Positions 11,301 to 61,161 of a stretch of 61,162 bases of DNA are shown here, piece after piece. The DNA is taken from positions 1 through 61,162 of the IMG/VR virus record IMGVR_UViG_3300047550_001096. One strand, 5' to 3'. Source of the stretch: a virus. Its lineage: Duplodnaviria > Caudoviricetes. Below the pieces are notes generated by a model that did not search any database, was not told the DNA's origin, and saw only the letters and a program-made list of their open reading frames with translations. The translations under genes and the position numbers were made by a program. The first letter of the stretch is position 1; each line of letters starts with the position of its first letter.

Positions 11301-11617
11301 TAGAATCTTACTCCATGTTTTTCTGGTCTAGTTTTGTTATATCCCATTTTATGCTGTAAGGCATAGTCTAAGGATACTGTTGTATATCCATGTTGAACTA
11401 ACCCATCATAAAGATCTAAAGTTCTAATAAGTATATCTGCAGTTTCCAAAGCAACTTCTTGTTCGCCCTTATCTTTACGTATTGCTTCCATTAATTCTGT
11501 TACCTCAGAAACAATCATCATGCATTGCTTTGCAATAAAAATATCATCAACCTCTTCAGGCCAAAATCCTTTTTCTTTTGCTACACTATGTAATTCCATT
11601 GCTAAATCATCCAACAT
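11300..11617 (-). CDS. MazG-like NTP pyrophosphohydrolase
   Basis: SEVTELMEA...ETADILIRTLD...KMGYNKTRPEKHG. Confidence 0.8.
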   Translation of the reverse strand: MLDDLAMELHSVAKEKGFWPEEVDDIFIAKQCMMIVSEVTELMEAIRKDKGEQEVALETADILIRTLDLYDGLVQHGYTTVSLDYALQHKMGYNKTRPEKHGVRF

Positions 11618-14600: not shown

Positions 14601-14897
14601 GTTTTTGGCAAGAAGGACTATATGATGATAATTTTGATCAAGAGGATCAGTGCGGTCTGCCTTTGCTCTCTTGTCAGCCATATCGCTTGTCATATAGCCT
14701 TCTATGCCTAATATGGGCTTAATGCCAGCCTCTTTAGCAATACGGTACATCTCACGGTGCCCAGACAGGGTTCCGTGGTCTGTAATGGCAATTCCTGGCA
14801 TTCCAAGTTCAACTGCCCTATTTACATATTCCTGCGGAGTAGCCACACCGTCCATTAGAGAATAATGGGTGTGGACATGAAGCCCAATATAATTCAT
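11607..14897 (-). CDS. dnaE: DNA polymerase III alpha subunit
   Basis: PHP domain (HVHTHYS, TDHG), GPGRGSSAGS, PDIDTD, IHAAGVV, KIDALGL, YSFNKSHA. Confidence 0.95.
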   Translation of the reverse strand: MNYIGLHVHTHYSLMDGVATPQEYVNRAVELGMPGIAITDHGTLSGHREMYRIAKEAGIKPILGIEGYMTSDMADKRAKADRTDPLDQNYHHIVLLAKNQQGLENLNKINEIAWTDGFFSKPRFDFATLEKYKEGLIVTSACLSGWVAKAVELDELAIAKKHIKWFKDTFKDDYYIEVMPHNPENVNKGLIELAKSMDVRVVVTPDCHHSDTTQKEIQELMLILNTHAKLQKDVTYDKSKKYKDIMERLDYLYGADRQMSFRSFDIHLLSYEEMKSSMAKQGIENEEMFASTMDIFNKIEDYDIKSGLNLLPVQYRNPMEELRKLAWESLEEKHLTSSWLGNDIYEVRLEEELNIIGEKNFGPYFLVVRNMINWAKKEGIMVGPGRGSSAGSLLCYLIGITDIDPIQHGLLFFRFINPERNDFPDIDTDIQDSRRDEVKDYLVRQYRHVASIATFLEFKDKGVVRDVARALNIPLPDVNKVLKTVDTWDDFCTSKNSAWFREKYPEVVMYGEQLRGRIRGTGIHAAGVVTSKEPIFKYAPMETRNVTGADDRIPVVAVDMEEAERIGLIKIDALGLKTLSVLKDTLDIVEDRYGKKIDLLNIDMDDKNVYQMLSDGYTKGVFQCEATPYTNLLVKMGVKNLAELAASNALVRPGAMNTIGKDYIARKHGRQNIDYLHQILKPFTEETYGCILYQEQVMQACVQLGNMTMAEADKVRKIIGKKKDAKEFDVFKDKFIKGASQYIAPNDALDLWHDFEAHAGYSFNKSHAVAYSTLSYWTAWLKYYYPIEFMFALLKNEKDKDARTEYLIEAKRMGISIKLPHINDSDIDFKIEGKGIRFGLSAIKFISEKIGERYISARPFNSYKEVEEFTFTKGNGVNSRALQAMNAIGALTFQDNPTDQVKVKENLYEYLNLPEFNISIPQHYYAYINDIEEYEEKGAFILMGMVKSIKRSKGWSRVELLDKTGSVGIFDEENTTVEAGRSYIILANDNRVVSAVPVDEIKESKDPLVKFLNYKMLPYKDDEMFVVSFKPRTTKAGKKMASLTLADAGRELHAVTVFPTAFPKAYMNVEPGNIYRFTFSKTKDGTVIMEDVANVG

Positions 14898-41779: not shown

Positions 41780-42690
41780 TATAATAATCCAATCTTTGTA
41801 ATACTCTTTAGATATTTACTAAGTATTTTATCCACAATCATATTACCAGTTCCGTCTAGAACAGATTTATCAAATTGAATCTTATACTGATCAGTGCTAT
41901 AAGATGTTACATATCTCTTGTAGTAATCAAGCTTTCCACATTTAAGATCTTCAATTAATAGTTTTGTTGCATATTCAATATCTGGTGGAATAGCTTTATA
42001 TCCAACATCTAAAACAAATAAGAAATCACATAAAACTGGGAATGTGCCAGATCTCATTCCTGTACTTGCAATATCTCCTGCTGCTGGCTGTAATCCAAGT
42101 GGCTGAGATTGTAGTCTATCAAATGGTCCATCTTCAATACGAATAATTGCTGTATTATCAAGAGTAATTGTATATGTTTCTTTATTATCTTCTGGATTTT
42201 CTGCATCAACATCAAATATTAATTCATTATCACGATATACCTTTAGTACCTTATTAACATCTTCCCATATTGGAAAATAATCTGATCCAGTACCGTTTGT
42301 TTCAACTATATGTTTATTATTATAAAATCCTTCACTAACAACTGAGTCTATAATCCCTCTAGCAACAAGCTCAAGCATTTTATATTCTTGTATTTCAGAC
42401 GCTGTGGTACCTAAATTTCTATAATCAATATATGGTCTAATAATGTCTAAATTGCTATCTAAAACAATAGTTCCGCTAGTATCTAAAATTCTAAAAAGAA
42501 ATATTCTGTCAAACTGTGCTTTTGCTTGTGTAATTGTATATGTTATTTTAGAACTAGAATCTGACGTTACATCTTGTGTTTCAACAGAGTGATCAACAAG
42601 ATCTTCAATATATAGTTGATATTCCGTATTAGGACTTGGAACATCCCACTTTGTTTCTATTGGATATGGGGGTAATCGTAATACTTCCAT
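41779..42690 (-). CDS. Head-tail adaptor protein
   Basis: GYKAIPPDIEYAT and TGNMIVDKILSKY adaptor-like motifs. Confidence 0.65.
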   Translation of the reverse strand: MEVLRLPPYPIETKWDVPSPNTEYQLYIEDLVDHSVETQDVTSDSSSKITYTITQAKAQFDRIFLFRILDTSGTIVLDSNLDIIRPYIDYRNLGTTASEIQEYKMLELVARGIIDSVVSEGFYNNKHIVETNGTGSDYFPIWEDVNKVLKVYRDNELIFDVDAENPEDNKETYTITLDNTAIIRIEDGPFDRLQSQPLGLQPAAGDIASTGMRSGTFPVLCDFLFVLDVGYKAIPPDIEYATKLLIEDLKCGKLDYYKRYVTSYSTDQYKIQFDKSVLDGTGNMIVDKILSKYLKSITKIGLL

Positions 42691-43046
42691 TAAATTTTAC
42701 CGTAATGTTTGGCTACCTCTTGAGGCGTCGCTTCACGAACATTCTTGCGAGTAAGCCACTTAACGGATTCCTCCTTTGTGACAATGTTATATCCTTTTTC
42801 AAGGGTCCCCACGCCATTCCAATGAATATTGCCTATTGAAAAAAGAGCTACTTTTTCTTTTGGCTTTTTAGTTTCTTTTTCTTTTGCCTTTGCTTCTTCA
42901 GTTGGAACAAAAGGCAGAATAGCTTCTAGTATTTCTATTTTTGTATTTGCGCCTAATAGATCAATGTTATTTTTCTTTGCATATGATTTTAATTGTGGAA
43001 CAGTCTTTTTATTAAACTGTTCAACTACTTCTTTTGTTGTTGCCAT
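42690..43046 (-). CDS. Hypothetical protein with Rho-N/HeH-like helix-extension-helix
   Basis: KTVPQLKSYAKKNNIDL...KIEILEAI. Start moved to MATTK (43046) behind GGAGGA and a TGATATAAT box. Confidence 0.65.
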   Translation of the reverse strand: MATTKEVVEQFNKKTVPQLKSYAKKNNIDLLGANTKIEILEAILPFVPTEEAKAKEKETKKPKEKVALFSIGNIHWNGVGTLEKGYNIVTKEESVKWLTRKNVREATPQEVAKHYGKI

Positions 43047-43077
43047 TATATCCTCCACTGCTATTATATCAGAATTG

Positions 43078-43290
43078 CTATTTATAAAGACTTTGTGGTT
43101 TTTTAACTCCCGCTGGAGTTCCACTCATTATTATATTTTCACCAAAGTTTGCTGTAGGAATACAACCCATGGCAAATCTTTGTGTAATTATTCCATTTGG
43201 TCCACTTATTACAGTGCCAATGCCACCCGCAGCAATTGCACCTTGTCCACCATGTTGGTGTTGAACTGTTGGATTTCCTGGATATGACAT
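43078..43290 (-). CDS. 70-aa stand-alone paralog of the major capsid protein N-terminal arm
   Basis: YPGNPTVQHQHGGQGAIAAGGIG matches MCP YPGAPTVSHQHGGDGAFASGDIG; own RBS AGGAG. Confidence 0.8.
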   Translation of the reverse strand: MSYPGNPTVQHQHGGQGAIAAGGIGTVISGPNGIITQRFAMGCIPTANFGENIIMSGTPAGVKKPQSLYK

Positions 43291-43300
43291 TTGTTCTCCT

Positions 43301-43341
43301 AATGACTAAGGAGGACAGTTTTACCTGCCCTCCTTATCATT
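43301..43341 (-). other. Long RNA hairpin between the MCP gene and the N-arm gene (no U-tract)
   Basis: AAUGA-UAAGGAGGGCAG-GUAAAA-CUGUCCUCCUUA-G-UCAUU, ending directly before the next SD. Confidence 0.7.
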
Positions 43342-43354
43342 TAGTTTTTACAAA

Positions 43355-44494
43355 CTATGCGGTTGGGTCAACTGCTGCATCCGCATAAGCGACTGCATCA
43401 AGCTCTTCCCATTGAATACCAAAGCGTACAAATACTGTGTACTCAATTGTATCCTTCTTTGGCTTGTACTCACGGTTTACCGTGATATCACGCTGGAAGC
43501 CCCATACACGGTTAGCAGGGAATGTTAGATCAACATAATCTGCTGGGTAGTAAGGAACTTCTTGTACATCAATTCCAAGGACACGTGTAGTACGTGCTCC
43601 TCCGAATGTCTGTGCAGCACCATCAAGATATGCTTGACGGTTCTGTGCTGTACCAGCAACACGTGGTGCAAATGCTTCTGCAATTGCATCAGCAAGTGTA
43701 CCGTTATTCTTTACGATACCCTGGAATGCATCAGTACCAGCATAGAACTTAAGATTGGTCTTAAGTGCACGATACTTACGTGGCATTGCTAGGATAATAT
43801 CCTGCATTACCTCTGTTGTCCAGTTATCATCAGTAACGGTAACGGCTGCTTCATGAGCATCGCCAGTTGTCGTAACTTTGTGTACGAAACCTTCCATGAT
43901 TGAAAGGAAGTCGCCAGTTGAACCATCGCCATTAATAGCAAGGTCTTCAATATCATTAGCAAATGCATTGGTCATCAAGCGAACTAGATGATCTTCCAAC
44001 GCACCTCCTTCAATATTGTCTTCTAGTGCTTCAGTTGAAACTTCCCAGTCAAGACGAATCTTTTTGGTAGTAAGTTCAACCTTAGTAAATGTAGCACCTG
44101 CGTTTGTATAATCAGAGCTTGCTTGTGCAGCAGCACGGATTACACGCTCACCAACGTTAACTTTCTCAAGTTCCATGGTGTTTGCTCGCATTGTAACTCT
44201 ACGACCATCTTTGGCGAGAACTGTTGCATCCCACACGTAGTCGATGAAGCGGCGAGCCTGCTCTGGAAGGAGGATACCACCTGGTGCGCCAGTAGGATTT
44301 ACTGCGTTTGGACCAGTTGTAACACCCCATTCAGGTGTAGCGATATTACCCAATTGTGCACCAATATCAGATGTGGTTGGGCTTGTAGCCGTTGCACCTC
44401 CGATATCACCAGATGCGAATGCACCATCTCCACCATGCTGATGTGAGACTGTTGGTGCTCCTGGATAATTCTTTACGATTTCTTGTTCCGACAT
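43355..44494 (-). CDS. Major capsid protein (HK97 fold)
   Basis: GGILLPEQARRFI, STEALEDNIEG, AFANDIEDLAINGD; follows protease/scaffold. Start at MSEQE behind AGGAGGTG. Confidence 0.92.
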   Translation of the reverse strand: MSEQEIVKNYPGAPTVSHQHGGDGAFASGDIGGATATSPTTSDIGAQLGNIATPEWGVTTGPNAVNPTGAPGGILLPEQARRFIDYVWDATVLAKDGRRVTMRANTMELEKVNVGERVIRAAAQASSDYTNAGATFTKVELTTKKIRLDWEVSTEALEDNIEGGALEDHLVRLMTNAFANDIEDLAINGDGSTGDFLSIMEGFVHKVTTTGDAHEAAVTVTDDNWTTEVMQDIILAMPRKYRALKTNLKFYAGTDAFQGIVKNNGTLADAIAEAFAPRVAGTAQNRQAYLDGAAQTFGGARTTRVLGIDVQEVPYYPADYVDLTFPANRVWGFQRDITVNREYKPKKDTIEYTVFVRFGIQWEELDAVAYADAAVDPTA

Positions 44495-44522
44495 ATTGTT
44501 CACCTCCTAGTGAATTTGTACC

Positions 44523-45818
44523 TTAATTAAATAGGTCGGCATTTGTGAGGAAACGTCCGCCCCATAGGGATTTTTGAACCTGTTTTACAACAGGCTCCTG
44601 CACGATCTCGCCTAGATCGCCAGACTTGCGGAAAGCTGTATCTTTTTCAACAAGATCAACTCGCTTTCCAAACTCATTAAAAGTACCCTTTACTTGGCTT
44701 ACCTCACTTGCTACAGACTTTACTTCGCCTGTAACTGTTTCAAGGGACTTTGTGATTGCATCAACATTAGTCTGTAAAGACTTAACTGTTTCAGCAAGAT
44801 TGCTCAAGGCATTAGTTAGAGATTCTTTAATTTCAGTAACAGACTTAGCAATATCTGCAGCTGTATCAACAACTGCATCAACTGACTTTTCTGCTACATC
44901 TTCAACAGCAGGAGTTTCTGCTGGTGTCTCTTCTGCTGGCTCTGATGCAGGAGCTTCCTCTGCAGGAACTTCTGCTGGAGCCTCTACTGGAGCCTCTGGA
45001 GCAACCTCAACATTGTCAACTACTTCTGGTGTATCTGCAACTGGTGCATCTACAACTTCTGTTGTTTCTTCTGTCATAGGATTTTCCTCCTTTGTCATCT
45101 TAATTGTTCTAATGCCTTTTGCACTATCAACTAAGAACTTTACTGTTTCTGTGTCATTAATATCTTCTACGAATCCAATATTTTTCATCGTACCACTGCA
45201 AGATGGGCAACTTTCTTCTGACTCTTTAGAAAGTCTAACTATGTCGTCAGTATTGCACCAGTAAACAGTATCAATAACAGCTTTAGCAAGATATCCGCTA
45301 ATCTGTCCTTTCTCAATTGAAATGACATTTGCGAATTGATTTGCTGGATTATCAACTAATGATAACTCGTGTAAATCATATTCTTTAATTATGCGAATTG
45401 ATTTATCAATTTTTTCATCATATGTATCATCAGACTTTGTAATATTTCCACCAATTGAAAAACCAGTTAGTGTACCGTCAAGAACTTTTTCCCAAGTATC
45501 TTGAGCCCCCTTTGATACATAAGCTGAAACATAAACACCACTATAGAATTTTTTTGCCTTTGGATCAAAATAACGGTCTTCTTTAAAAGATACAACTTTG
45601 CCAACAGCATTTGGTTGATGCATTTCACGAAGATTTCCACGAAACCTCTTAAATGCATCTATACTTGCTTCAGTTGTGACAATATCGTTTTGCTTGTCTA
45701 CATTGTCTAATGTAGCAAATCCAGATACGATACGACGCTCTTTGTCTACTTTTCCAATAGGCATAGAGAAGCGAACATTGTCGCCATCGGTTGTCCATTG
45801 CGCTTTATTTATGGTCAT
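44523..45818 (-). CDS. Prohead protease fused to scaffold region
   Basis: RIVSGFA, REMH, GFSIGG, ELSLVDNPAN, then an acidic Pro/Ala/Glu linker and coiled coil. Confidence 0.88.
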   Translation of the reverse strand: MTINKAQWTTDGDNVRFSMPIGKVDKERRIVSGFATLDNVDKQNDIVTTEASIDAFKRFRGNLREMHQPNAVGKVVSFKEDRYFDPKAKKFYSGVYVSAYVSKGAQDTWEKVLDGTLTGFSIGGNITKSDDTYDEKIDKSIRIIKEYDLHELSLVDNPANQFANVISIEKGQISGYLAKAVIDTVYWCNTDDIVRLSKESEESCPSCSGTMKNIGFVEDINDTETVKFLVDSAKGIRTIKMTKEENPMTEETTEVVDAPVADTPEVVDNVEVAPEAPVEAPAEVPAEEAPASEPAEETPAETPAVEDVAEKSVDAVVDTAADIAKSVTEIKESLTNALSNLAETVKSLQTNVDAITKSLETVTGEVKSVASEVSQVKGTFNEFGKRVDLVEKDTAFRKSGDLGEIVQEPVVKQVQKSLWGGRFLTNADLFN

Positions 45819-45858: not shown

Positions 45859-47505
45859 CTATTGAGAAGATCTTCCTTCTCCTTGTGGATTTCTTCCAGA
45901 AATAGTAGAAGGTGAATCTGAGTTATTATTTGTTCTTTGTGCGTCTCTTTCCCTATTACCCGCCACATTAGCCCTAGCGTCTGTAGCCTGTCTTGGAGAC
46001 ATAACAAATGGCATATTACCATCACCGTCTGGTCTTGGAGGAAGGTCAATAATTTCACGAGCCTCGTCAGGTGTCATAACCTGTGTTTTTACGTATCTTT
46101 CAAGAATTTGAGACTGTGCTATTTCGTCAGTTAAAGTCATTTCATTAAACTTTAATTCAAGAACATCTGTCTTTTCTTTAATTATTTTATTGACAATTTT
46201 CTCTAACTGAGCCTGTGCTGGACGTGCAACCTGTTCCTTAAATGTTCTATCCTGAGACATTGCAGCAGCAATAGCAGCAGAGTCTGATCCACCAAGCTTT
46301 GATATTGGAACTTGATGTGCAACTAAAATATCATCACGATTTTGTTTACGATATTCTTTAAACGATGCTTCCTGAACAGCAGTTTCAACAGGTTCCATAT
46401 TAAACTCAACTTTATTATTATCTGTATCACCAGGAAGCGGAATATATAGAGTTCTATGATTTTGACCCTTTAGGCCAGTTTGCAAAAATCTAAACATTTT
46501 ATCTTCTGCTTCAGCAGAAAGCTTTGCACCTTTTACTGTAATTATATATCTTGGAGCACCTTTGTTTGAAAAATATTCAATGTTGTATTGTGCAGCAAGT
46601 GAATCACCAATTAATGAAGATACAGCAGAAACAATATCTGGAACACCATAATATGTATTTAGTGGAGAATATTCTTTAAGATGAATTATCTCATTAGGTC
46701 TTCCATCTACTGTTATTGGGTTTTGATTTTTTGCCCCAAAATTTCTAAAATAAACAACTTTTTGTCCAATAATCTGAACAAAACCATCACGAAGACGACG
46801 AACACGAATAGTAGGAGCAGGTATATGTCCAACATATCCAATCTCTCCACTAACAGTTCTTCCTATTTCAATAAATCCGTTTCCAGTTGATTGAAGATCT
46901 GTATAAACTTTTTCCATAGTTGTTGTAAAAGAATCATCATCATTTAATGACTCTAGCCAATCACGCATTTGTAACTTCATTCTTTCAATGCGATTACGTG
47001 CACGATCAACAGCGCCTTCGTCTTCACTATTTTCAAATTTTAACATTGTGCGATCTGTAATATCAAAACGGTATCCAAGACCAACAACATTTTCTACCTT
47101 TGCGTCAATAGCAGCATGATTTGCAAATGACGTATCGTAATAACTTGCTAATTCATAAAGATTATATGGAGGTGTAATAACATCAAACAATCCATAGCCA
47201 TTTCTATAAACAGAACCAGTGCTAATTTGTTTTGATCCAGTACCGTCTTGTCCTGTTGGAATAGCTCCTGCATTTTCTAAGTATGCGTTTGTTGGTTCAA
47301 CATTACTATAACCATATACTTTAGATACGCTTCTAGTAGTTCTTCGTTTAAAGTTTTGATCTAGTCCAGAAAAGTCTTTAAGCAAATTCCAATCTTTATT
47401 AAATGGATCTTGATGTTTAAAAATATTATCTGGCTCTTCTTGTGTTCTTAAGCTAGCCTGTATATAATCGTATTCTTTACTCAATTTCGTATGCCTCTCT
47501 ACCAT
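45859..47505 (-). CDS. Portal protein
   Basis: TGNGFIEIGR, EIIHL, YYGVPD, YFSNKGAP, AHQVP, MTPDEARE. True start may be TTG at 47484. Confidence 0.9.
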   Translation of the reverse strand: MVERHTKLSKEYDYIQASLRTQEEPDNIFKHQDPFNKDWNLLKDFSGLDQNFKRRTTRSVSKVYGYSNVEPTNAYLENAGAIPTGQDGTGSKQISTGSVYRNGYGLFDVITPPYNLYELASYYDTSFANHAAIDAKVENVVGLGYRFDITDRTMLKFENSEDEGAVDRARNRIERMKLQMRDWLESLNDDDSFTTTMEKVYTDLQSTGNGFIEIGRTVSGEIGYVGHIPAPTIRVRRLRDGFVQIIGQKVVYFRNFGAKNQNPITVDGRPNEIIHLKEYSPLNTYYGVPDIVSAVSSLIGDSLAAQYNIEYFSNKGAPRYIITVKGAKLSAEAEDKMFRFLQTGLKGQNHRTLYIPLPGDTDNNKVEFNMEPVETAVQEASFKEYRKQNRDDILVAHQVPISKLGGSDSAAIAAAMSQDRTFKEQVARPAQAQLEKIVNKIIKEKTDVLELKFNEMTLTDEIAQSQILERYVKTQVMTPDEAREIIDLPPRPDGDGNMPFVMSPRQATDARANVAGNRERDAQRTNNNSDSPSTISGRNPQGEGRSSQ

Positions 47506-47893: not shown

Positions 47894-50800
47894 TTATACT
47901 GGTGTTCCTACCTTTGTTTCCCAAACAATGTCAATATATGCGCTAAGATTGCTAGAAGATACCTCTATACCCTGATTATCATCAACAATAACCTTGTTTG
48001 TTCCTATATATGTTTCATATATTATTGAAGGATCAACTCCATAAATATCTGTAGAGCCAATTATTAATACATCTTCCCAGTCAGTAGTACCCTGGTTCCA
48101 ACTATCCCAGGTAAAGTCTGTTATTCCCTCAGAAAGTACGTCTGCCCAAGGTCTTGTTAAGACTCCCTGTATTTGTTGAAGATTATTTGCCTGATAAAAT
48201 GCAACATTATTAAATACTAGTGGACCATTTAGATTTATTTCTCCAATAAATGCATCAAAGTCTAAAGCTGGAGCAAATTTTATTCCAAGAGCACCCCATT
48301 CTTTAGTTGTTATAAAAGGTTCTCTCACTGGATTACCATTCCAATAATAAGATATTCCCTTATATTCTTCGCCAGTTTTTGTGCTTATGGCATATATTTT
48401 TGCCCTGTTACTTGCTGTTCCTATTGACTGCATATAAAACTTTATTACATCTCGTTTTGTTGATATTTCAAATACTTTAACTGGGTTAGCACTAATTGTA
48501 TTTAAATTACTTTTAATCCACATTTGAACTGCACTTATTTTATAGTCTTCAACTAGGTTAGTATTTATTGGAACAGCAATACCTCTATTTATTGATGGAG
48601 AAATAACTCCCCTAACTTCTATTCCAGAAGTATTGGTTAGATATAAGTATGGTGTACTTCCTTTATAAATGCTATATGGATTTTTTGATTTATAATCATA
48701 ATATATACCGACTTTTTTATATGGATAAACATCTATACCAAATCGTGTTCCAACTGGATTAAAATCAACACTATTAAAAGCTTGTGATGCTATTTGTAAT
48801 TTTTTAATTGCAATTGGTTTTGAAAGTATTCCTTTTACTTTAAACTCTAAACTATATACCATTGCTATTTCGTTAAAGTCTACAGTTTTATCTGGATAAA
48901 TTAGTGTATTATCTAACACTTCAAATCTTGTAATATCCCAGTCAGTGTACTCACTAACATCAAGAACCTTGCCTTCTTTTGCTGGAACATTTATACTAAA
49001 ATAATCTTTTGGTGCATTTGCTCCTTCATCAATATATTGAAATGTTACATAACTACGAACCGACGCATCTTGTGTATCATACTCTAAAAATGATATACTC
49101 TTTTGTGACATTTCTTGATAAGAGTTCCATCCAGTTAATAAGTAATCATCTAATTCTTCATATGTTAGCTGTACAGGAGTAGAATATTCATCTTTTAACT
49201 CGTCGTATGTCCATGTTTGAATATCTCCACCTTGTACTAATTTATTAGATGGTGGATAAGATATATTATACTGTAAAAAGTCTAGATCATAATAGCTATC
49301 TCCAGTTTCTGTTTTTATAAATTGTCCAAAATAAGAAAGTGGCATATAGTCTTGCCAATATCCTGCTACTGATATATCTAAAAAGTAGTTAGAGTAAGAT
49401 TCCATTGGAATCAAGGTATAGCTAGCAACATGGTTTAATAATGTTAATGCGTTTGTTGGCTCATCATATCCACTTGCATATGGATCATCAATTATAACTA
49501 TTCCATTTTCTTCAAAGCTATTTTTTATTTCATTAGAATTATATACAGTACATAATCCAAATGAATAAATTCTTCCAGTAAATTGATTACTTAAATATCC
49601 GTCTCCTCCAACATATATACCCATACCATTCAAATTACCAAAAAATGCTAAAAGGTTTCCGCCAAAAAAATCAACTAGCTGATCTATTTTAATTCCTACT
49701 GCAAATTTTTCATTAGAAAGTATTAGATTGGTTACATGTAAAAGACTTGTTATTCCATTATAAGTAAAATAATATCTTATTTCGTCTGAGTTTCTTTCTA
49801 TTGTAAAAGAATTTCCTGTAATAGAGTTATAAATTTTTATTAATATTTCTGATGATAGTAAGTTATCTGTTGAAAATACTCCATATACTGCATTTACTTT
49901 TGATGATAAAAGATTAAATTTTTGAAAATTAAAATAACAAAGATCTAAATCCCAAAAACTATTTGGTCTAAATGAAATAAATTTATAGTCTGGATCATCT
50001 TGTATATCTTTATTATCTAAATAAAGATCATTTATGTCTCTATTATTAATAAAAATATTTGGTAAAGAATAGCTTGGAGTTGTAATAGATGATGGTGTGG
50101 CAACTAAGTTGTCAAATGTTGCCTGTTGCCATTTTGCAAAATCTGGATAATTATAGTTAGCAGTATAGTCTGCAAATGGATAGTCTATAAATGCTTCTGT
50201 GCCATCATAGGAAGAATTTATTGACTCTGGAGAAATAACTGCTTGTCCATAAACAAATCTTCTTTTAGCTACATTAACTGGAACTGAATAAGGATATATC
50301 GCAACGCAATCTATTTCAAATGGCGACACATCTTCATATGCATAAAAACCAAGCCAGTCCTGTTTTGTTCCAGACTCATTAAATTGAGAAGGAAGATCTA
50401 AAGTATCTGTGTCTATTACCATTGATATAGCCTGAGAACCATTAATAAATACACTAGCAGAGTTTTGAATAACTTTAACCTGTATTAGCATTGGTCTTGA
50501 CCATTCACCAACAAAATATGATGAGAATGATTTGCCAATTGATAAAGTTAAAAATCCTCCTTCTACATATAATCCGTCTGTTGATGTTATAGGACCAAAT
50601 ATTCTTTTTGCTTCATATGTATTTACATCAATACGTGCCCAAAACTCTACGGTATAGTCTTTAAACTGACCAACTTTATTTAAAAATCCTTTTCCTGGAA
50701 CTATTAAAGAAGGATCTCCATTGTTTTGTTTTAACTTAGTTATATTAGATGCACCAAAAACAATTGGAATTCCAGTATTGTTTGATAACATGTAATTATC

Positions 50801-51508
50801 TTTAACTAGATAATACCCTGGATCTTGAGCTAATCCATAGGAGTCTGCTAAAATACAATCAAAACCAGATATTGGAACATCTGCTGGTAAACTCTGTTTT
50901 ACAGCACCTAAAGATACTGCATTAAAATTTTCTGATAATTGTCCTACAGTTATTCCATTGATATAAAATTGATAGTCAGATGATGATGCTCCGCCATCTT
51001 CATAAAAGAATTTTATTAAAACTCTTAAAGATGTATTATCAGCTGGCACTTCAAATGTTCCTGAAATAAAACTCCAAATATTAAAAGAAGTTGTCTCAAA
51101 CTCTTTAAACTGCTGTATATTATTTGACGTTAAAATATCTGTATATTCAAAACCTATTGCTACCTTAGTTATATATGGACTGTTAGAATAAAAATATGCA
51201 CCAATACAAAATGTTTCTATATCTGGATCTAGGGAAGCAAAATTAACTATGTCTGGACTTGTACATAAAAGTGATGTTGGAGATACTGGAACATCTGCTT
51301 CTATAAGACTAATATTGCTATTTGGAAATGGTTGTTTTTCAATATTTGGCGATGCTAAAGCTGTTGCATTTAATAGTGTCCATCCAGTGATATCTCTATC
51401 TGACTCTTGTATTAGACTTAAATATGATATTTCATCGTCCAGCGCCCACATTGATGTTGGGTGCTCTGCAAATATCTTTTCTGCATACAAGTTAGATGGG
51501 GTGGCCAT
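47894..51508 (-). CDS. Large putative virion protein (LamG/carbohydrate-binding-like domains)
   Basis: YAEKIFAEHP..WALDD start; YTVEFWARI and IDCVAIYPY LamG-like motifs. Confidence 0.6.
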   Translation of the reverse strand: MATPSNLYAEKIFAEHPTSMWALDDEISYLSLIQESDRDITGWTLLNATALASPNIEKQPFPNSNISLIEADVPVSPTSLLCTSPDIVNFASLDPDIETFCIGAYFYSNSPYITKVAIGFEYTDILTSNNIQQFKEFETTSFNIWSFISGTFEVPADNTSLRVLIKFFYEDGGASSSDYQFYINGITVGQLSENFNAVSLGAVKQSLPADVPISGFDCILADSYGLAQDPGYYLVKDNYMLSNNTGIPIVFGASNITKLKQNNGDPSLIVPGKGFLNKVGQFKDYTVEFWARIDVNTYEAKRIFGPITSTDGLYVEGGFLTLSIGKSFSSYFVGEWSRPMLIQVKVIQNSASVFINGSQAISMVIDTDTLDLPSQFNESGTKQDWLGFYAYEDVSPFEIDCVAIYPYSVPVNVAKRRFVYGQAVISPESINSSYDGTEAFIDYPFADYTANYNYPDFAKWQQATFDNLVATPSSITTPSYSLPNIFINNRDINDLYLDNKDIQDDPDYKFISFRPNSFWDLDLCYFNFQKFNLLSSKVNAVYGVFSTDNLLSSEILIKIYNSITGNSFTIERNSDEIRYYFTYNGITSLLHVTNLILSNEKFAVGIKIDQLVDFFGGNLLAFFGNLNGMGIYVGGDGYLSNQFTGRIYSFGLCTVYNSNEIKNSFEENGIVIIDDPYASGYDEPTNALTLLNHVASYTLIPMESYSNYFLDISVAGYWQDYMPLSYFGQFIKTETGDSYYDLDFLQYNISYPPSNKLVQGGDIQTWTYDELKDEYSTPVQLTYEELDDYLLTGWNSYQEMSQKSISFLEYDTQDASVRSYVTFQYIDEGANAPKDYFSINVPAKEGKVLDVSEYTDWDITRFEVLDNTLIYPDKTVDFNEIAMVYSLEFKVKGILSKPIAIKKLQIASQAFNSVDFNPVGTRFGIDVYPYKKVGIYYDYKSKNPYSIYKGSTPYLYLTNTSGIEVRGVISPSINRGIAVPINTNLVEDYKISAVQMWIKSNLNTISANPVKVFEISTKRDVIKFYMQSIGTASNRAKIYAISTKTGEEYKGISYYWNGNPVREPFITTKEWGALGIKFAPALDFDAFIGEINLNGPLVFNNVAFYQANNLQQIQGVLTRPWADVLSEGITDFTWDSWNQGTTDWEDVLIIGSTDIYGVDPSIIYETYIGTNKVIVDDNQGIEVSSSNLSAYIDIVWETKVGTPV

Positions 51509-51534: not shown

Positions 51535-53565
51535 TTAAGACATTTTAATTTCACAAGAGTCGGTGGTGCAATATGCCTCTCCCATAGCCTCTAAATTATT
51601 AGCCCCATCATAAATTGCAGCCCAATTAATCTTTTTAATTTGCCCAATATATGACTCATATTCCTCTTTTGTAATTTGAGTATATGGTTGTTGAGGATAG
51701 GTATGATTTCCCATTGGTAAGAATGACACTGCTTTTAACTGCCCTTCGTACATATGGAGAGCAGATGCAATATGCTTTGATTCAGACTCTTTATCAAATG
51801 AAAGAGTAACAGAAACACCATTGTCTGACCAATATTTTTGAGCAGTAGCAGCAAGTGCTATTTTTTCAAATAATGTTACATCTTTTTCAGAACGAGCATG
51901 GCCAGAATGTACTGGGAAATATACAACTTGTGTATTTGCTGATACTAAATCTTTTTCAACTTTATACCCCGCTGCTTTGAACAAATGAATCATTGGATCT
52001 GTTTCTCCAAAGCGGATTGCACGAAGGAAATATTCTCCTCCTGGTGCCCAGTGAACTCCTGGAGTTGCTCCAGAAAGAATTGAAACAGAGCCAGAAGGTT
52101 TTACAGTTGTGACACGAATTGATTCACGAACACACAACCATTCTGAATATTTGTGATCATAGGCACGAATTGTTTTATATCCTTCATCCATCCATTCACG
52201 AACTGCAGGCAAACCTTTTTGATCTGCAAATGATGCAATTCCAGTTAGTGATGTTCCAATACGACGATTACGCTGCATAATTCCATTTGTTTGTTGCCAA
52301 TGTGTTGGAATAAGAGTAACTGTCTTTCCATATAAATATGCAAATTTTAAAGTACGCAAAAAATCTTCTTTAGAATCGTGACGATTTAAATGAACCTCTA
52401 CAAGTGTACATAGTTCGTATGATTCTAATGGTTGTTCTGCACAAGGATTAAATCCCATAACACGATAATCTTTTCCATCTGCTGGATCTGCAAGACGACC
52501 ATAGTTGCGAGCAACATCAAGCCAAATAAAACCAGGTTCTCCGTTATTTGCAATTAAATCAACATAGTCTTCATATTTTGTTCCTACATTTGCTGATATT
52601 GAATTATTACTCATCCATGCCCAACCTGGTTTTTCTGGATCATACGAATTTCTATCTGGAAAAACCTCTGGGTTTTTAAGATTAATAAAATCATCATCTC
52701 CAGCTGCTCCAAGTGCAAGAGTTGCAGAACGTCGTACATTACCAGCAACAACGCATGTTCCAATTAAATTTACAATATCAACAATTGCACGAGAATCTAG
52801 TTTTTCTCCTGCTCTCCCGCCAATAACTGTACGAATACGATTATGTAAATCAATCAATGGTTGTGGGCCAGATGCGACTCCTCCAAATCCTTTAATAGGA
52901 GCGCCTAATGGACGAATTAGGGAATAATCAAATTCTTGAATTGCTTGATTAGGACGAAGGAATGAATTAATTAGCATTCTTACAGACTCAACCCATCCCT
53001 CACGAGTATCAGGAATTTCATAAGTTACTGAGGGTTCTGTAGGGGAATAAATAGGAAATTCTTTTTCTGCTCCCACAGTATCAAATCCAACACCAATACC
53101 AAGCATCAGTGCATCCATCACCCAAGCAAATAAGGCACCTGGATCATTTTTGTCTAAATCTTTAGTTGAGACCATAGCACAATTTTGAAGTGCTGCTGAG
53201 TTGCGCTTCTCCATAGTCATAGGAGTTCCAAACGCCCACATACCACGTCCTGGAGGAGTCCACTTTAAATTAAACATACGGTCAAAAGCTTCTTGGGCAG
53301 ATTTTTGGGCCTTATTATCATTCCAAGGCAGGCGATTTTCTTTAGCATGATTTTTCTGCACTGAGTACATTCCCTCAATTACACGACGGCAAACTTCATA
53401 CCATCGCTCCTTTGTGCCATCATCTTTCATTCTTGAATATGTGCGAATAAATGTTATTTCTCCAAGGGAGTTGTTGCCTGCATCTGAAAACCCAAATGGT
53501 GGCTCAGTGCTTTTATATTTATTCACAAACTCATCTAGTAAACGGAATGAAAAGATATCTGACAT
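51535..53565 (-). CDS. nrdJ: Class II (adenosylcobalamin-dependent) ribonucleotide reductase
   Basis: RTYSR, PPGRG, LQNC, GNVRRSA, NPCAEQ, TVKPSGSVS, C-terminal CTTDSC; no beta-subunit gene nearby. Confidence 0.92.
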   Translation of the reverse strand: MSDIFSFRLLDEFVNKYKSTEPPFGFSDAGNNSLGEITFIRTYSRMKDDGTKERWYEVCRRVIEGMYSVQKNHAKENRLPWNDNKAQKSAQEAFDRMFNLKWTPPGRGMWAFGTPMTMEKRNSAALQNCAMVSTKDLDKNDPGALFAWVMDALMLGIGVGFDTVGAEKEFPIYSPTEPSVTYEIPDTREGWVESVRMLINSFLRPNQAIQEFDYSLIRPLGAPIKGFGGVASGPQPLIDLHNRIRTVIGGRAGEKLDSRAIVDIVNLIGTCVVAGNVRRSATLALGAAGDDDFINLKNPEVFPDRNSYDPEKPGWAWMSNNSISANVGTKYEDYVDLIANNGEPGFIWLDVARNYGRLADPADGKDYRVMGFNPCAEQPLESYELCTLVEVHLNRHDSKEDFLRTLKFAYLYGKTVTLIPTHWQQTNGIMQRNRRIGTSLTGIASFADQKGLPAVREWMDEGYKTIRAYDHKYSEWLCVRESIRVTTVKPSGSVSILSGATPGVHWAPGGEYFLRAIRFGETDPMIHLFKAAGYKVEKDLVSANTQVVYFPVHSGHARSEKDVTLFEKIALAATAQKYWSDNGVSVTLSFDKESESKHIASALHMYEGQLKAVSFLPMGNHTYPQQPYTQITKEEYESYIGQIKKINWAAIYDGANNLEAMGEAYCTTDSCEIKMS

Positions 53566-57553: not shown

Positions 57554-58924
57554 TTAAACCTTTGATACTGATAGTGAAATAGTTGCTTTTGTAACAGATG
57601 TTACGCTATCAACGTTAAATGCAAGAATATCTCCAGAAGATATTGATGTAGTCCAACCAGTTAAGGTTGAACTTTGACCCTTAGTAGCAGTAGTTGTTAA
57701 TGGTTTTGCAGAACCAGTAATTGTATCTGCTACAGTTGGAGGGTAGTTAGCATAAGTATCTTTCCAAATATCAATAGTAATAGAACCAGATACATCATTT
57801 AATACTGTCCACTTTGTAATAGTACATCCAAATGGTATTTCTAAATATCCTTTAAGACCTGTTGTAATTACAGATCCGCCACCATCAATAATAAATGTAA
57901 TAGTTCCATCTGCTACACCTCTTGTACCTTGAATACCAGTTGTGCCTTGTAATCCTTGTAATCCCGTAGTTCCTTGAGTTCCAGTTGAACCCTGTGTACC
58001 AGTTGTGCCTTGTGAACCAGTTGTACCTTGTGGTCCTTGTGTTCCTTGAATACCAGCAACGCTAAATGTCCAGGCTGCAAAAGTACCAGATCCACCGAAA
58101 ACATCAGCGTTAATCGTAATGCTTGTATCTGCAGTAATTGATGTAATAGAACCTTCAACATAGTTAGATGGTGTTGCTGTATTTGCTGCACGAACACGCT
58201 CTCCTAACTGAAATGCACCAGTATTTGAAACTGTAAATGTTTTAGAGCCTGTTCCAATAGCAACAGATGTTGATGATGTAACTCCTAAAAATGAACGACC
58301 TTGGATTCCTTGAGTACCCTGAGTTCCAGTAGAACCCTGAGTTCCTGTAGTTCCTTGAATACCTTGATCCCCAGTTCTAGAAAAAACTACTGATAATGAT
58401 CCAGTATTAGTAGGAAGTGATCCAGAAACATATGAAACTGGTATCTTATAATATCCAGTAGCTCCACCAGTTGGAGTTACTGCTCCAGTAACTGTAAAAA
58501 CATTGAATGTAGTAGAGCCAACACTAGTTCCTAGCAAATATATTGTTCCACGAGTTGCAGTAGTTGTTGAATCATCCCAAGTATCATACCAACCAGTTTG
58601 TGTATTTCCTAAAGAATCAAGATTATCTATATATATAAAACTAACAGAAGACATTGTTCCACTGTTATATCTAATTATTCCATTTCCAGGATCTGAATCA
58701 GTAGTTGTAGTACTAAATGCATATGGGACACCACCGCTACCGCTTGGTCCAACTGTCCCTTGAATACCAGATGCATAGGCTAAAGAATTCCAGCTAGTAG
58801 ACCCATTTCCTACTTTAAATTTACCAGTATCTGTTTCATATCCTGGTTCTCCAGCAGCCAATAATGTATTAGCAGCTGTCCATTGTGCTGCTGTACCTCG
58901 TCTATACTGAATTTGAATTGGCAT
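57554..58924 (-). CDS. Collagen-like tail fibre with Mtd-N-like N-terminal domain
   Basis: IQYRRGTAAQW...LAAGEPGYETDTGKFKVGNG..WNSL.Y; globular domains separated by G-X-Y runs. Confidence 0.8.
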   Translation of the reverse strand: MPIQIQYRRGTAAQWTAANTLLAAGEPGYETDTGKFKVGNGSTSWNSLAYASGIQGTVGPSGSGGVPYAFSTTTTDSDPGNGIIRYNSGTMSSVSFIYIDNLDSLGNTQTGWYDTWDDSTTTATRGTIYLLGTSVGSTTFNVFTVTGAVTPTGGATGYYKIPVSYVSGSLPTNTGSLSVVFSRTGDQGIQGTTGTQGSTGTQGTQGIQGRSFLGVTSSTSVAIGTGSKTFTVSNTGAFQLGERVRAANTATPSNYVEGSITSITADTSITINADVFGGSGTFAAWTFSVAGIQGTQGPQGTTGSQGTTGTQGSTGTQGTTGLQGLQGTTGIQGTRGVADGTITFIIDGGGSVITTGLKGYLEIPFGCTITKWTVLNDVSGSITIDIWKDTYANYPPTVADTITGSAKPLTTTATKGQSSTLTGWTTSISSGDILAFNVDSVTSVTKATISLSVSKV

Positions 58925-58941
58925 TTTTTCTCCTCAACCTA

Positions 58942-61161
58942 TTATACAGTACCTGCATCAATTAGTGACATACCGCCATAATCTGAGTCTGGCGCTCCAC
59001 CATCAAGATTTCCCAAAGTATGAATAGCATTTCCTTGTTCAACCCAGAAATTATCATAATATAAAAATGTTTTAGTAGTATCTGATTCAAACCAAACAGT
59101 TCCTTGTACTGGAGATGAAGGTGGAGTATCTGATACAGTTAGACTTGATCCGCCACTTCCAGAAATACCTTGAGTACCCTGTGATCCAGTTGTTCCCTGT
59201 ATACCAGTTGTACCTTGTGTTCCAGTTCCAGTTAGCCCTTGTGAACCAGTTGTGCCTTGAGAACCTGTTGTACCCTGTGAACCTGTGGATCCCTGTGTTC
59301 CAGTGGTTCCCTGTGAACCCTGTGTTCCAGTTGTTCCTTGGCTTCCTGTAAATCCTTGTGTACCAGTTGAACCCTGTGAACCTGTTGTTCCCTGTGAACC
59401 AGTTGTGCCCTGAGAGCCAGTTGTTCCTTGTGAACCAGTTGTACCTTGAGAGCCAGTCGCACCTTGTGTTCCAGTTGTACCTTGTGAACCTGTGGATCCC
59501 TGTATTCCAGTAGTTCCCTGTGAACCTTGTGTTCCAGTTGTTCCTTGGCTTCCTGTAAATCCTTGTGTACCAGTTGTTCCTTGAGAACCAGTTGCTCCTT
59601 GTGAACCAGTTGTGCCCTGAGAACCAGTTGTTCCTTGAGAACCAGTTGCTCCTTGTGAACCAGTTGTGCCCTGTGCACCTGTAGTACCTTGTGCACCTGT
59701 AGTACCTTGTGCACCTGTAGTACCTTGAGAACCTGTAGTGCCTTGAGAACCTGTAGTGCCTTGAGAACCTGTAGTGCCCTGTATTCCACGTTCACCAGCT
59801 ATTGAAAATGTCCAAGCAGTAAATGTTCCTGATCCACCTGTTAAATCAACATTTACTGTAATACTTGTATTTGCTGTTAATGCAGTAATTTGACCTTCCA
59901 TATAATTGGCAGGAGTACCTGTATTAATTACACGAACACGTTCTCCAATTACATATGCACCTGTTAATGATGTATTAAATACTTTAGATCCAGTACCAAT
60001 AGCTATTGATGTAGTTGATGTGACACCAGAATAACCTGTTCCTTGTATACCCTGCGTTCCTTGTGAACCTGTTGTTCCCTGTGAACCAGTTGTGCCCTGA
60101 GAGCCAGTTGTTCCTTGAGAACCAGTTGTGCCTTGTGAACCAGTTGCACCCTGTGTTCCAGTTGTGCCTTGTGAACCAGTTGCACCCTGTGTTCCAGTGG
60201 TTCCTTGTGAACCCTGTGTTCCAGTTGTTCCTTGGCTTCCTGTAAATCCTTGTGTACCAGTTGAACCCTGTGAACCTGTTGTTCCCTGTGAACCAGTTGT
60301 GCCCTGAGAGCCAGTTGTTCCTTGTGAACCAGTTGTACCTTGAGAGCCAGTTGAACCCTGTGAGCCTGTTGTTCCCTGTGAGCCAGTTGCACCTTGAGAG
60401 CCAGTTGTTCCTTGTGGTCCAGTTGTTCCTTGAATTCCTGTTGTACCTTGAGATCCAGTTGATCCTTGTGCACCTGTATCACCTTTATCACCAACACGAG
60501 CTAAGGTCATTGCACATAATGTGTTATTTGAAAAACTTGAAACTGTACCAGAAACATATGCTACTGGAACTGTATACCATGTTCCATTATCAGTATGTGT
60601 TCCAACTATTTGATAAAAAACATAATTATCTGTATTATTATGATCAGATAATCTAAATGTTCCTTTTATAGTAGAAGTTGAATCGTCAATTGTTTCTAAT
60701 GCTGCAGAAACATTTGCATTATTTGCATCTATATCATCTATATAAAGCTGTGTAGCTGTTGTTAATGTATTATTAAATCTTATATACCCGCTTCCAGGGT
60801 CTGATGCTGTAGTGGTTGTACTATAGTTATAATCGTATGTTTCACCACCAAAATTACCAGTAGGTCCTTGTATTCCTTGTGAACCTGTTGTTCCCTGTCT
60901 TCCTTGTACTCCTTGTGCGCCAGTTGTACCTTGAGAACCAGTTGTACCTTGAGAACCTGTAGAACCTTGAGAACCTGTAGCACCTTGTGAACCTGTAGCA
61001 CCAGTTGTGCCCTGTGCACCAGTTGTACCCTGTGCACCAGTTGTACCTTGTGAACCAGTTGTACCTTGTGCTCCAGTTGTACCCTGTGCACCTACTGTGC
61101 CTTGTGTGCCAGTTGTGCCTTGTGTACCTTGAGATCCAACTGTTCCTTGTGTACCAACACT
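58942..61161 (-). CDS. Long collagen-like fibre protein, 5' end beyond the window
   Basis: The frame of ORF 58942..60510 stays open to the window edge (hand translation: G-X-Y run, then YNYSTTTTASDPGSGYIRFN domain), so Met at 60510 is internal. Confidence 0.85.
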   Translation of the reverse strand, partial: SVGTQGTVGSQGTQGTTGTQGTVGAQGTTGAQGTTGSQGTTGAQGTTGAQGTTGATGSQGATGSQGSTGSQGTTGSQGTTGAQGVQGRQGTTGSQGIQGPTGNFGGETYDYNYSTTTTASDPGSGYIRFNNTLTTATQLYIDDIDANNANVSAALETIDDSTSTIKGTFRLSDHNNTDNYVFYQIVGTHTDNGTWYTVPVAYVSGTVSSFSNNTLCAMTLARVGDKGDTGAQGSTGSQGTTGIQGTTGPQGTTGSQGATGSQGTTGSQGSTGSQGTTGSQGTTGSQGTTGSQGTTGSQGSTGTQGFTGSQGTTGTQGSQGTTGTQGATGSQGTTGTQGATGSQGTTGSQGTTGSQGTTGSQGTTGSQGTQGIQGTGYSGVTSTTSIAIGTGSKVFNTSLTGAYVIGERVRVINTGTPANYMEGQITALTANTSITVNVDLTGGSGTFTAWTFSIAGERGIQGTTGSQGTTGSQGTTGSQGTTGAQGTTGAQGTTGAQGTTGSQGATGSQGTTGSQGTTGSQGATGSQGTTGTQGFTGSQGTTGTQGSQGTTGIQGSTGSQGTTGTQGATGSQGTTGSQGTTGSQGTTGSQGTTGSQGSTGTQGFTGSQGTTGTQGSQGTTGTQGSTGSQGTTGSQGTTGSQGLTGTGTQGTTGIQGTTGSQGTQGISGSGGSSLTVSDTPPSSPVQGTVWFESDTTKTFLYYDNFWVEQGNAIHTLGNLDGGAPDSDYGGMSLIDAGTV
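59291..60351. repeat. 167-bp direct repeat (59291-59457 and 60185-60351, one mismatch) within GTTGSQ-coding repeats
   Basis: Aligned by eye; copies are 894 bp apart (in frame). A partial third copy lies near 59513-59576. Confidence 0.8.

Follow-up and report, generated by a model that had tools for sequence, protein, structure and literature searches.

The vertex protein gp24 of phage T4, a paralog of the major capsid protein (MCP) gp23, is encoded beside the MCP gene by a duplicated gene; it is used at special positions of the lattice, and bypass mutants dispense with it. The SaPI1 protein CpmB mimics the docking end (the C-terminus) of the scaffolding protein of phage 80alpha and has a proven role in size redirection. 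In HK97, the helical delta domain of gp5 serves as a scaffold and is later removed by cleavage. We analyzed a 61,162-bp IMG/VR virus record (IMGVR_UViG_3300047550_001096; estimated completeness 54%), the whole of which is called the window here, and describe a 70-aa open reading frame (ORF) that lies directly behind its MCP gene and resembles the N-terminal extension of that MCP. Like T4 gp24, this small ORF would provide an accessory capsid component derived by duplication of the adjacent MCP gene. Unlike gp24, which is a full-length HK97-fold paralog, only ~70 N-terminal residues outside the HK97 core were copied. The product resembles CpmB in that it is a short protein similar to part of a capsid-assembly protein, and the way in which CpmB competes for or fills a docking site is proposed here by analogy. 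CpmB, however, is satellite-encoded, mimics a scaffold rather than the MCP and has a proven role, whereas the role of the present protein is a proposed one. Like the HK97 delta domain, which is linked to assembly, the copied region is N-terminal and lies ahead of the HK97 core; unlike the delta domain, the extension is rich in Gly and Pro without a predicted helix, and a scaffold-like coiled coil sits on the protease instead.

Very small accessory capsid proteins have been described in other phages. Adjutor gp4 is such a protein of 6.2 kDa, and Patience gp4, a random coil when unbound, takes on order only when bound to the capsid lattice; the MCP is its sole contact, and among related phages it is optional (PMC11965321). 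The passages on gp4 place it in a hexamer chasm and describe no MCP paralogy for it, which sets gp4 apart from the small ORF (PMC11965321). The window shares with the Stanwilliamsviridae phages Comrade and BillNye the gene order portal, small gene, protease/scaffold, MCP and HeH-like gene, and the MCP core is 39-44% identical. In contrast to the window, these two phages have an MCP of 331 aa without the 57-aa insertion described below, and their 134-aa HeH-like protein follows directly after the MCP with no small ORF between. A free-standing paralog of only the N-terminal extension of an MCP was not found in the full text of open-access papers and bioRxiv.

The small ORF, the MCP gene and the paralogous segment within the latter are located as follows.

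43078..43290, minus strand: small ORF, 70 aa with a basic tail at the C-terminus, separately encoded paralog of the N-terminal extension of the MCP (ATG 43290-43288, stop TAG 43080-43078)
43355..44494, minus strand: MCP gene, HK97 fold, 379 aa (ATG 44494, stop TAG 43355-43357; PF05065, 1.2e-6; phrog_1623, 3.6e-73)
44261..44470, minus strand: part of the MCP gene for residues 9-78, the Gly/Pro-rich extension and the first residues of the N-arm; paralogous segment (tblastn/HMM match to the small ORF)

BLASTP aligned the small protein with the MCP at 25 identities in 70 positions (E 5e-11), pairing residues 2-66 of the small ORF with residues 12-81 of a 382-aa ORF, which are residues 9-78 of the 379-aa MCP. 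The observed score was 43.1 bits, as compared with a maximum of 25.4 bits in 300 shuffles of the small protein. When the alignments of the small-ORF family and the MCP-extension family were compared by HHalign, the probability was 99.1% and the E-value 1.5e-18 over 70 columns. The profile of the small family matched the MCP N-terminus in the records of all four relatives searched (E 2e-12 to 2e-20) and found exactly two places in each of them, the small ORF and the MCP extension; one of these two-copy records is a 100%-complete genome of 107.7 kb. Y-P-G, several Gly residues and the G-x-P-x-G of the GTP-G motif are invariant in both paralogs, which also have in common a skeleton of Gly, Pro and aromatic residues (YPG, G-x-G, LG-I-T--FG, GTP-G---P-Q). 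Capsid-profile matches on the MCP start at residue 75 (Pfam PF05065) and residue 72 (phrog_1623), and the first 50 aligned codons of the small ORF and the MCP segment are 53% identical as DNA, or 48% when third positions alone are counted. These results bear out the initial annotation, which had stated that the whole 70-aa protein aligns to the MCP N-terminus, that the similarity stops where the HK97 core begins and that the two copies are diverged at the DNA level. By significant homology together with the monophyly of the free-standing copies shown below, the small protein belongs to the MCP-extension paralog family, and on these comparisons the 70-aa ORF is a true paralog of MCP residues 9-78. 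It is not an HK97-fold MCP itself, as it aligns only to residues 9-78 ahead of the core and not to the region of PF05065. Nor is it a full-length MCP paralog of the T4 gp24 type: only the 70-aa segment is duplicated, with two profile places in the complete 107.7-kb relative.

The identity of the upstream gene is well defined. The MCP scores 28.6 bits against the cut-off of 24.2 bits for the HK97-fold family PF05065, and genes for a portal and an S78 protease lie upstream. MSEQ opens the protein in all relatives, which places its start at ATG 44494; the GTG at 44503 in the mechanical call of the 382-aa ORF falls within the AGGAGG Shine-Dalgarno (SD) sequence of the MCP. Among named phages, the Stanwilliamsviridae of Streptomyces have the MCPs closest to that of the window, with 39-44% identity, which for most of them extends only from residue 75 on. 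Searching the PDB by sequence and by profile returned no relevant relative of the MCP, and among GenBank phages there was neither a DNA-level match for the region nor a tblastn match for the small ORF.

The small ORF behaves as a gene under purifying selection. In a large protein database it is represented by 39 clusters of ~70 aa with identities of 57-100%, and identity falls no lower than 57% although synonymous sites are near saturation. A scan of IMG/VR yielded 78 viral loci with the small ORF. The reading frame was open across the match in 78/78, three of them being cut by contig ends, and the MCP core lay directly upstream on the same strand in 77/78, the last locus having just 35 nt of upstream DNA. 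In the 61 loci with both genes complete (window included), the spacer between the MCP gene and the small ORF is 63-71 nt; translation of the small ORF would start at ATG in 60 of these loci and at GTG in one. Two length types were distinguished, one of 69-75 aa, to which the window belongs, and a longer one of 79-92 aa. The ratio of nonsynonymous to synonymous substitutions (dN/dS) was calculated by the method of Nei and Gojobori (NG86) for 46 unique loci of the 61 that hold both genes whole; the small ORF gave 0.16-0.27, and the MCP gave 0.12-0.23 in its extension and 0.09-0.13 in its core. The longer type gave ~0.40, a value from 8 distinct sequences with dS near saturation. A 586-nt RNA-library contig spans the whole small ORF and the spacer at ~84% identity, for which DNA carry-over is possible. 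An overlapping element on the opposite strand as the cause of the conservation was not evident, and a plus-strand ORF at 42829-43287 is unsupported. These data indicate that the 70-aa ORF is a real gene kept by selection. We also considered a silent recombination cassette or the template of a diversity-generating retroelement; both were rejected because of the DNA identity of 53%, the ORF's own SD, start and stop, and the purifying selection.

The nature of the copied piece was examined in an alignment (A4) of the MCPs of the clade with 70 Stanwilliamsviridae-like (Streptomyces-phage-like) MCPs. Relative to the latter, the window's MCP clade carries an insertion of ~57 aa, and all 70 Stanwilliamsviridae-like MCPs are 324-335 aa long as compared with 379 aa for the window MCP; the insertion was missing from every Stanwilliamsviridae-like MCP among the alignment rows listed (one row in four). 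It is placed between an N-terminal motif (MSEQEIVKN here, MSNELLEKV in the Streptomyces-phage type) and a common GGILLPEQARRFIDY stretch, the 'GGILLPEQ' region, which opens the canonical N-arm and core. The initial annotation had regarded the small ORF as a copy of the capsid N-arm. Since the Streptomyces-phage-like MCPs are without the ~57-aa insertion, the copied segment is not the N-arm as such; most of it is a Gly/Pro-rich extension that is specific to the clade and precedes the arm, and about ten of the first arm residues make up the rest. Within this segment, H-x-H was invariant in the 42 small-ORF/MCP pairs compared, all of which came from the first scan. It is replaced by LNGEG/INGDG-type sequence in the MCP extension of several lineages found later (L083-L161), 48 of 124 loci are without H-x-H in the MCP extension, and at least 6 changes are required on the MCP-core tree. 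If both His residues bind metal, the resulting metal site would not be a universal feature.

A joint tree separated the 48 distinct small ORFs from the 70 distinct MCP extensions by a single branch with an approximate likelihood ratio support (SH-aLRT) of 99.6, and the one small-ORF clade takes in both the 69-75-aa and the 79-92-aa types. Grouping of all small ORFs in one clade shows that the duplication of the 5' part of the MCP gene happened once and early, and that the small ORF has evolved apart from the MCP copy since then. With a single origin, the patchy distribution described below reflects loss or cassette exchange, not repeated duplication. In the longer type, GPNAVNP[ST]GTP, a peptide that is nearly invariant in the MCP, is conserved despite scrambled synonymous sites; from the window type the GPNAVNP segment has been lost. 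At the DNA level, identity of this segment is 0.64 to the own MCP vs 0.67 to other MCPs, with free variation at synonymous positions. Because the GPNAVNP DNA is no closer to the own MCP, a recent event of gene conversion between the copies was rejected. Conservation of the peptide in both copies without DNA identity suggests a common constraint on the motif.

A profile search of 1.84 billion representatives returned 7 matches: five belong to the small-ORF family, one is a fragment of a frameshifted MCP and one a repeat protein judged spurious. The last of these, P0161, is a database protein of 1659 aa with a ~68-aa tandem repeat, of which 24 stretches match positions 50-66 of the small-ORF profile; it was rejected as a relative, the match being judged spurious and of low complexity. 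Another of the matches, an intermediate form of 82 aa (P0162) that retains the MCP-like TSGPNAVNPTGTP segment, was used as a query and added 79 loci, giving 158 in all. Presence and absence were scored in the 124 of these 158 loci with a complete MCP and at least 450 nt downstream, leaving out L159 and truncated loci, and the small ORF was present in 79/124.

The IMG/VR loci L149 and L150 are 99.6% identical over the final 285 nt of the MCP gene compared. From about the last ten MCP codons on, the downstream DNA of L149 switches to the type without the small ORF, which marks a recombination breakpoint at the 3' end of the MCP gene or at the hairpin that follows it. L147 has a 250-nt deletion relative to L150 with flanks that are 100% identical; its MCP gene is short of the last ~33 codons, its small ORF of the first 28, and the hairpin between them is gone, so that L147 is probably a defective variant or an assembly artefact.

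The DNA around the small ORF contains three short elements in addition to the coding sequence.

43308..43335, minus strand: stem-loop of 11 bp in the MCP 3' spacer (AAGGAGGGCAG / CTGTCCTCCTT), without a U-tract, conserved
43296..43300, minus strand: SD AGGAG of the small ORF, 5 nt before its ATG, as read from the sequence
43063..43071, minus strand: extended -10-like element TGATATAAT, immediately past the end of the small ORF; the next gene starts ~17 nt further on

In the window, the spacer between the MCP gene and the small ORF is 64 nt and holds the stem-loop. A long hairpin ahead of the ORF had been noted in the initial annotation, and the stem-loop was found in 36/36 distinct spacers with a dG of -22 to -31 kcal/mol. 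Its RNAalifold consensus has 11 pairs, 5 of them with compensatory changes, and the structure is also kept in loci without the small ORF (L149). Because it is without a U-tract, the stem-loop does not read as a textbook intrinsic terminator. An Rfam search of positions 42500-44700 gave only a chance-level match (E 0.91). An SD-like core was present in 34/34 distinct 20-mers upstream of the small ORF; the SD of its own and the intact frame that the initial annotation described both hold. Downstream, TGnTAWAAT (usually TTCTGATATAAT) was found in 91/91 distinct regions with or without the small ORF, with the exact 9-mer in 63/91, and it lies just upstream of the SD of the HeH-like gene in all 10 loci displayed. 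The TTCTGATATAAT element is possibly a late promoter for head-completion genes. Loci without the small ORF have it 53-66 nt past the MCP stop, as against 143-325 nt (median 292) in loci with the ORF. This shift shows that the small ORF with its SD is a discrete cassette, inserted between the MCP 3' stem-loop and the putative extended -10 promoter of the next gene.

Since the small ORF is without a promoter-like element of its own, it is probably read through from the MCP transcript; its product would probably be made in amounts well below those of the MCP. In RNA-library contigs from four runs (four studies), the MCP gene reached summed depths in the hundreds to thousands, as compared with 0-17 for the spacer and the small ORF. 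Contig depth is valid neither for expression nor for ranking genes, and the runs had moreover been found through the conserved MCP; the drop in depth was therefore not used as evidence of termination at the hairpin. The highest summed depth in runs X1 and X4 was at the junction between the protease 3' end and the MCP 5' end (44487-44708), where it reached up to 13,564 in X1; this is likewise no measure of expression.

The small protein contains 13 Gly and 6 Pro in 70 residues, and the displayed sequences of both types end in a basic C-terminal tail (KKPQSLYK, RRPQTLRR, ...SRRRR). It had no Pfam match at E up to 0.1 and no PHROG match at E up to 0.01, and an ESM Atlas search with it gave no usable match. 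None of the decoration families gpD, Soc, Dec, Psu/gp87 and Ig-like Hoc was recovered in Pfam, PHROG, the ESM Atlas or the profile search of 1.84 billion representatives. AlphaFold2 (AF2) modeling of the small protein from a 50-row alignment gave a mean predicted local distance difference test score (pLDDT) of 46 and a tentative three-strand meander only, a low-confidence prediction that fits a peptide ordered only on a partner. A scaffold-like or delta-domain-like coiled coil was not seen, DSSP assigning zero helix to the small protein or to MCP residues 1-76 in these low-confidence AF2 models. A membrane protein was rejected because the maximum KD19 was 1.22 and no membrane segment was predicted. 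Complex prediction with two copies of MCP 79-379 and the small protein (A4 and A2 alignments), run without controls, gave ipSAE values of 0.00 and 0.00, which count neither way.

We tentatively favor the reading that the small protein is a low-copy, disordered and optional accessory of the capsid that mimics the arm, because it has a skeleton in common with the MCP extension and because GPNAVNP[ST]GTP is conserved despite scrambled synonymous sites. A low-level peptide would be made by read-through past the MCP 3' hairpin and would dock either on an MCP subunit or on the lattice of the capsid, at the site normally taken by the extension of the MCP itself. Docking would be at low copy, for example where a neighboring arm is missing near the portal or the pentons, and the docked peptide would give optional reinforcement or help in assembly; close relatives whose MCP bears the same extension manage without it. 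It is more doubtful that partial duplication of an arm represents a new route to an accessory capsid protein, in which a free arm would fill empty sites in trans (the portal vertex, neighbors of pentons) or mask or decoy the arm against host factors, as an exchangeable cassette.

Several observations weigh against the arm-mimic reading. AF2 modeling of the MCP from a shallow 39-row alignment gave a pLDDT of 30, too low to place the extension in the shell. At its center (VISGPNGIIT, with a conserved Cys) the small protein exceeds the MCP copy in hydrophobicity, a possible sign of a separate function. One of the 39 clusters (P0038) is frameshifted and 51 aa long and occurs on 5 contigs, and two (P0037, P0039) have foreign N-termini and come from very short contigs. 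The small ORF is missing in 45/124 loci whose MCP carries the extension and in a 100%-complete genome of 114 kb, where the family profile finds the MCP only; the same held for all five long records without an adjacent small ORF, this genome among them. Because of these absences the gene is dispensable, and on this distribution the small ORF is optional and cannot be an obligatory component of the capsid. Presence and absence switch at least 6-7 times on the MCP-core tree, in which many forks are unresolved and recombination is evident, and this patchy pattern would also fit conditionally useful accessory genes such as those for counter-defense. Co-variation with the cognate MCP arm, which the initial annotation had put forward as a check, proved to be weak: identity is 43.4% to the own MCP extension vs 42.3% to others, just 1-2 phylogenetically independent contrasts are available, and we do not count it as evidence. 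A naive permutation result (1/2000) was rejected because it corresponds to a difference of 1 percentage point, with shared ancestry as a confounder. Agreement of the H-x-H state between the small ORF and the MCP in 78/79 loci, the exception being the truncated L147, was also rejected, as it amounts to a single independent contrast.

It is unlikely, in our judgment, that the small protein is instead a regulator of the assembly phase and no component of the virion. Such a regulator would transiently take the partner site of the MCP extension on the MCP, the protease-scaffold fusion or the portal, much as CpmB mimics the C-terminus of the 80alpha scaffold. It could delay premature MCP polymerization, adjust nucleation or the size of the shell, or act as a competing substrate of the protease. 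The gene is part of the head-assembly module, beside a protease with a scaffold-like coiled coil, its product has no predicted fold of its own and conserves the contact motifs in common with the MCP extension, its place behind the hairpin implies low expression, and its dispensability in relatives suits a tuning factor. However, the extreme N-terminal motif MSEQEIVKN, which the MCP shares with the Streptomyces-phage MCPs and which is the most plausible scaffold-docking piece, is missing from the small protein. The patchy spread returns in the proposal of a counter-defense decoy, a free peptide that would soak up a host sensor or protease recognizing the exposed MCP extension and thereby protect assembly or prevent abortive infection. 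In line with it are the cassette-like distribution, in which presence and absence switch at least 6-7 times, the existence of recombinants such as L149 and, as weaker points, the faster evolution of the small ORF than of the MCP. Early expression would suit a decoy better than the apparent late, low co-expression with the MCP, amounts far below the target would make a decoy inefficient, and the gene belongs to the structural operon, where it follows a hairpin, rather than to the early genes. No defense or anti-defense family was found in Pfam or PHROGs (PADLOC was not searched), and we rate the decoy as improbable.

The conserved and more hydrophobic center with its Cys, together with the loss of the GPNAVNP segment in the window type, would also be expected of a neofunctionalized small protein with a role unrelated to the capsid, whose likeness to the MCP is merely historical. 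Retention of the place directly behind the MCP gene in 77/78 loci and of the Gly/Pro skeleton in common with the MCP makes this still less probable than a decoy, and neither a predicted membrane segment nor a family match (Pfam, PHROGs, ESM Atlas, 1.84-billion-representative profile search) points to another role. Decay of a partial duplication, or a spurious ORF, is essentially excluded. The initial annotation had named absence or disruption in relatives with dN/dS near 1 as the sign of such decay. Absence was indeed frequent (45/124 loci), and the frameshifted cluster P0038 and the 250-nt deletion in L147 are of the kind that decay would produce. Where the gene is present, however, it is intact, with the frame open in 78/78 loci, a dN/dS of 0.16-0.27 (0.40 in the longer type), a conserved SD and start codon, a length kept at 69-75 aa or, in the second type, 79-92 aa, and identity no lower than 57% despite near-saturated synonymous sites.

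The small ORF is part of a head module on the minus strand that comprises the portal, S78 protease and MCP genes, the 70-aa ORF and an HeH/SAP-like gene.

45859-47505, minus strand: portal gene, upstream of the protease in the head module
44523..45818, minus strand: S78 prohead protease gene, upstream of the MCP gene; the C-terminus of the product bears an acidic linker and a scaffold-like coiled coil (PF04586, PF14550; phrog_9427, 1.6e-120)
42690..43046, minus strand: next gene, 118 aa, with an HeH/SAP/Rho_N-like N-terminal domain (ATG 43046, SD GGAGGA; weak Rho_N/SAP matches)

The HeH-like gene adjoins the MCP gene directly in the 45 loci without the small ORF, and the homologous position in Streptomyces phage Comrade is that of gp29. 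Its product has a conserved C-terminal motif (VALYS-KNL-W-GVG-L-KGYNIV...), and in some relatives without the HeH domain only a C-terminal version of 61-72 aa is left. A 1204-aa ORF at 47894-51508 (minus strand) lies between a ribonucleotide reductase gene and the small gene next to the portal; it had no PHROG match at E <= 0.001 and no Pfam match at E <= 1e-5. Elsewhere in the window, positions 11607-14897, 51535-53565 and 57554-60510 encode a DnaE-type Pol III alpha subunit with PHP, NTPase, finger and HHH domains, the ribonucleotide reductase and two collagen-repeat proteins, one of which carries an Mtd_N domain and is probably a fiber. No terminase was identified within the annotated part of the window.

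More than 3,300 MCP clusters were returned by the MCP search at E <= 1e-5, and the runs that yielded the RNA-library contigs were labeled as freshwater or aquaculture metagenomes in all four studies. Because of this number of clusters and the contigs in these studies, the clade looks like an abundant group of aquatic phages, and a conserved gene in the head module of such abundant phages is worth assigning. The near-identical MCPs with and without the cassette (L150 and L149) represent a natural experiment. If the small protein is a trans-acting arm, the lattice would gain a minor protein through duplication of no more than a flexible contact element of the MCP, short of a whole domain, and this would bear on how HK97-type shells handle symmetry mismatches and on how stabilizing accessories arise.

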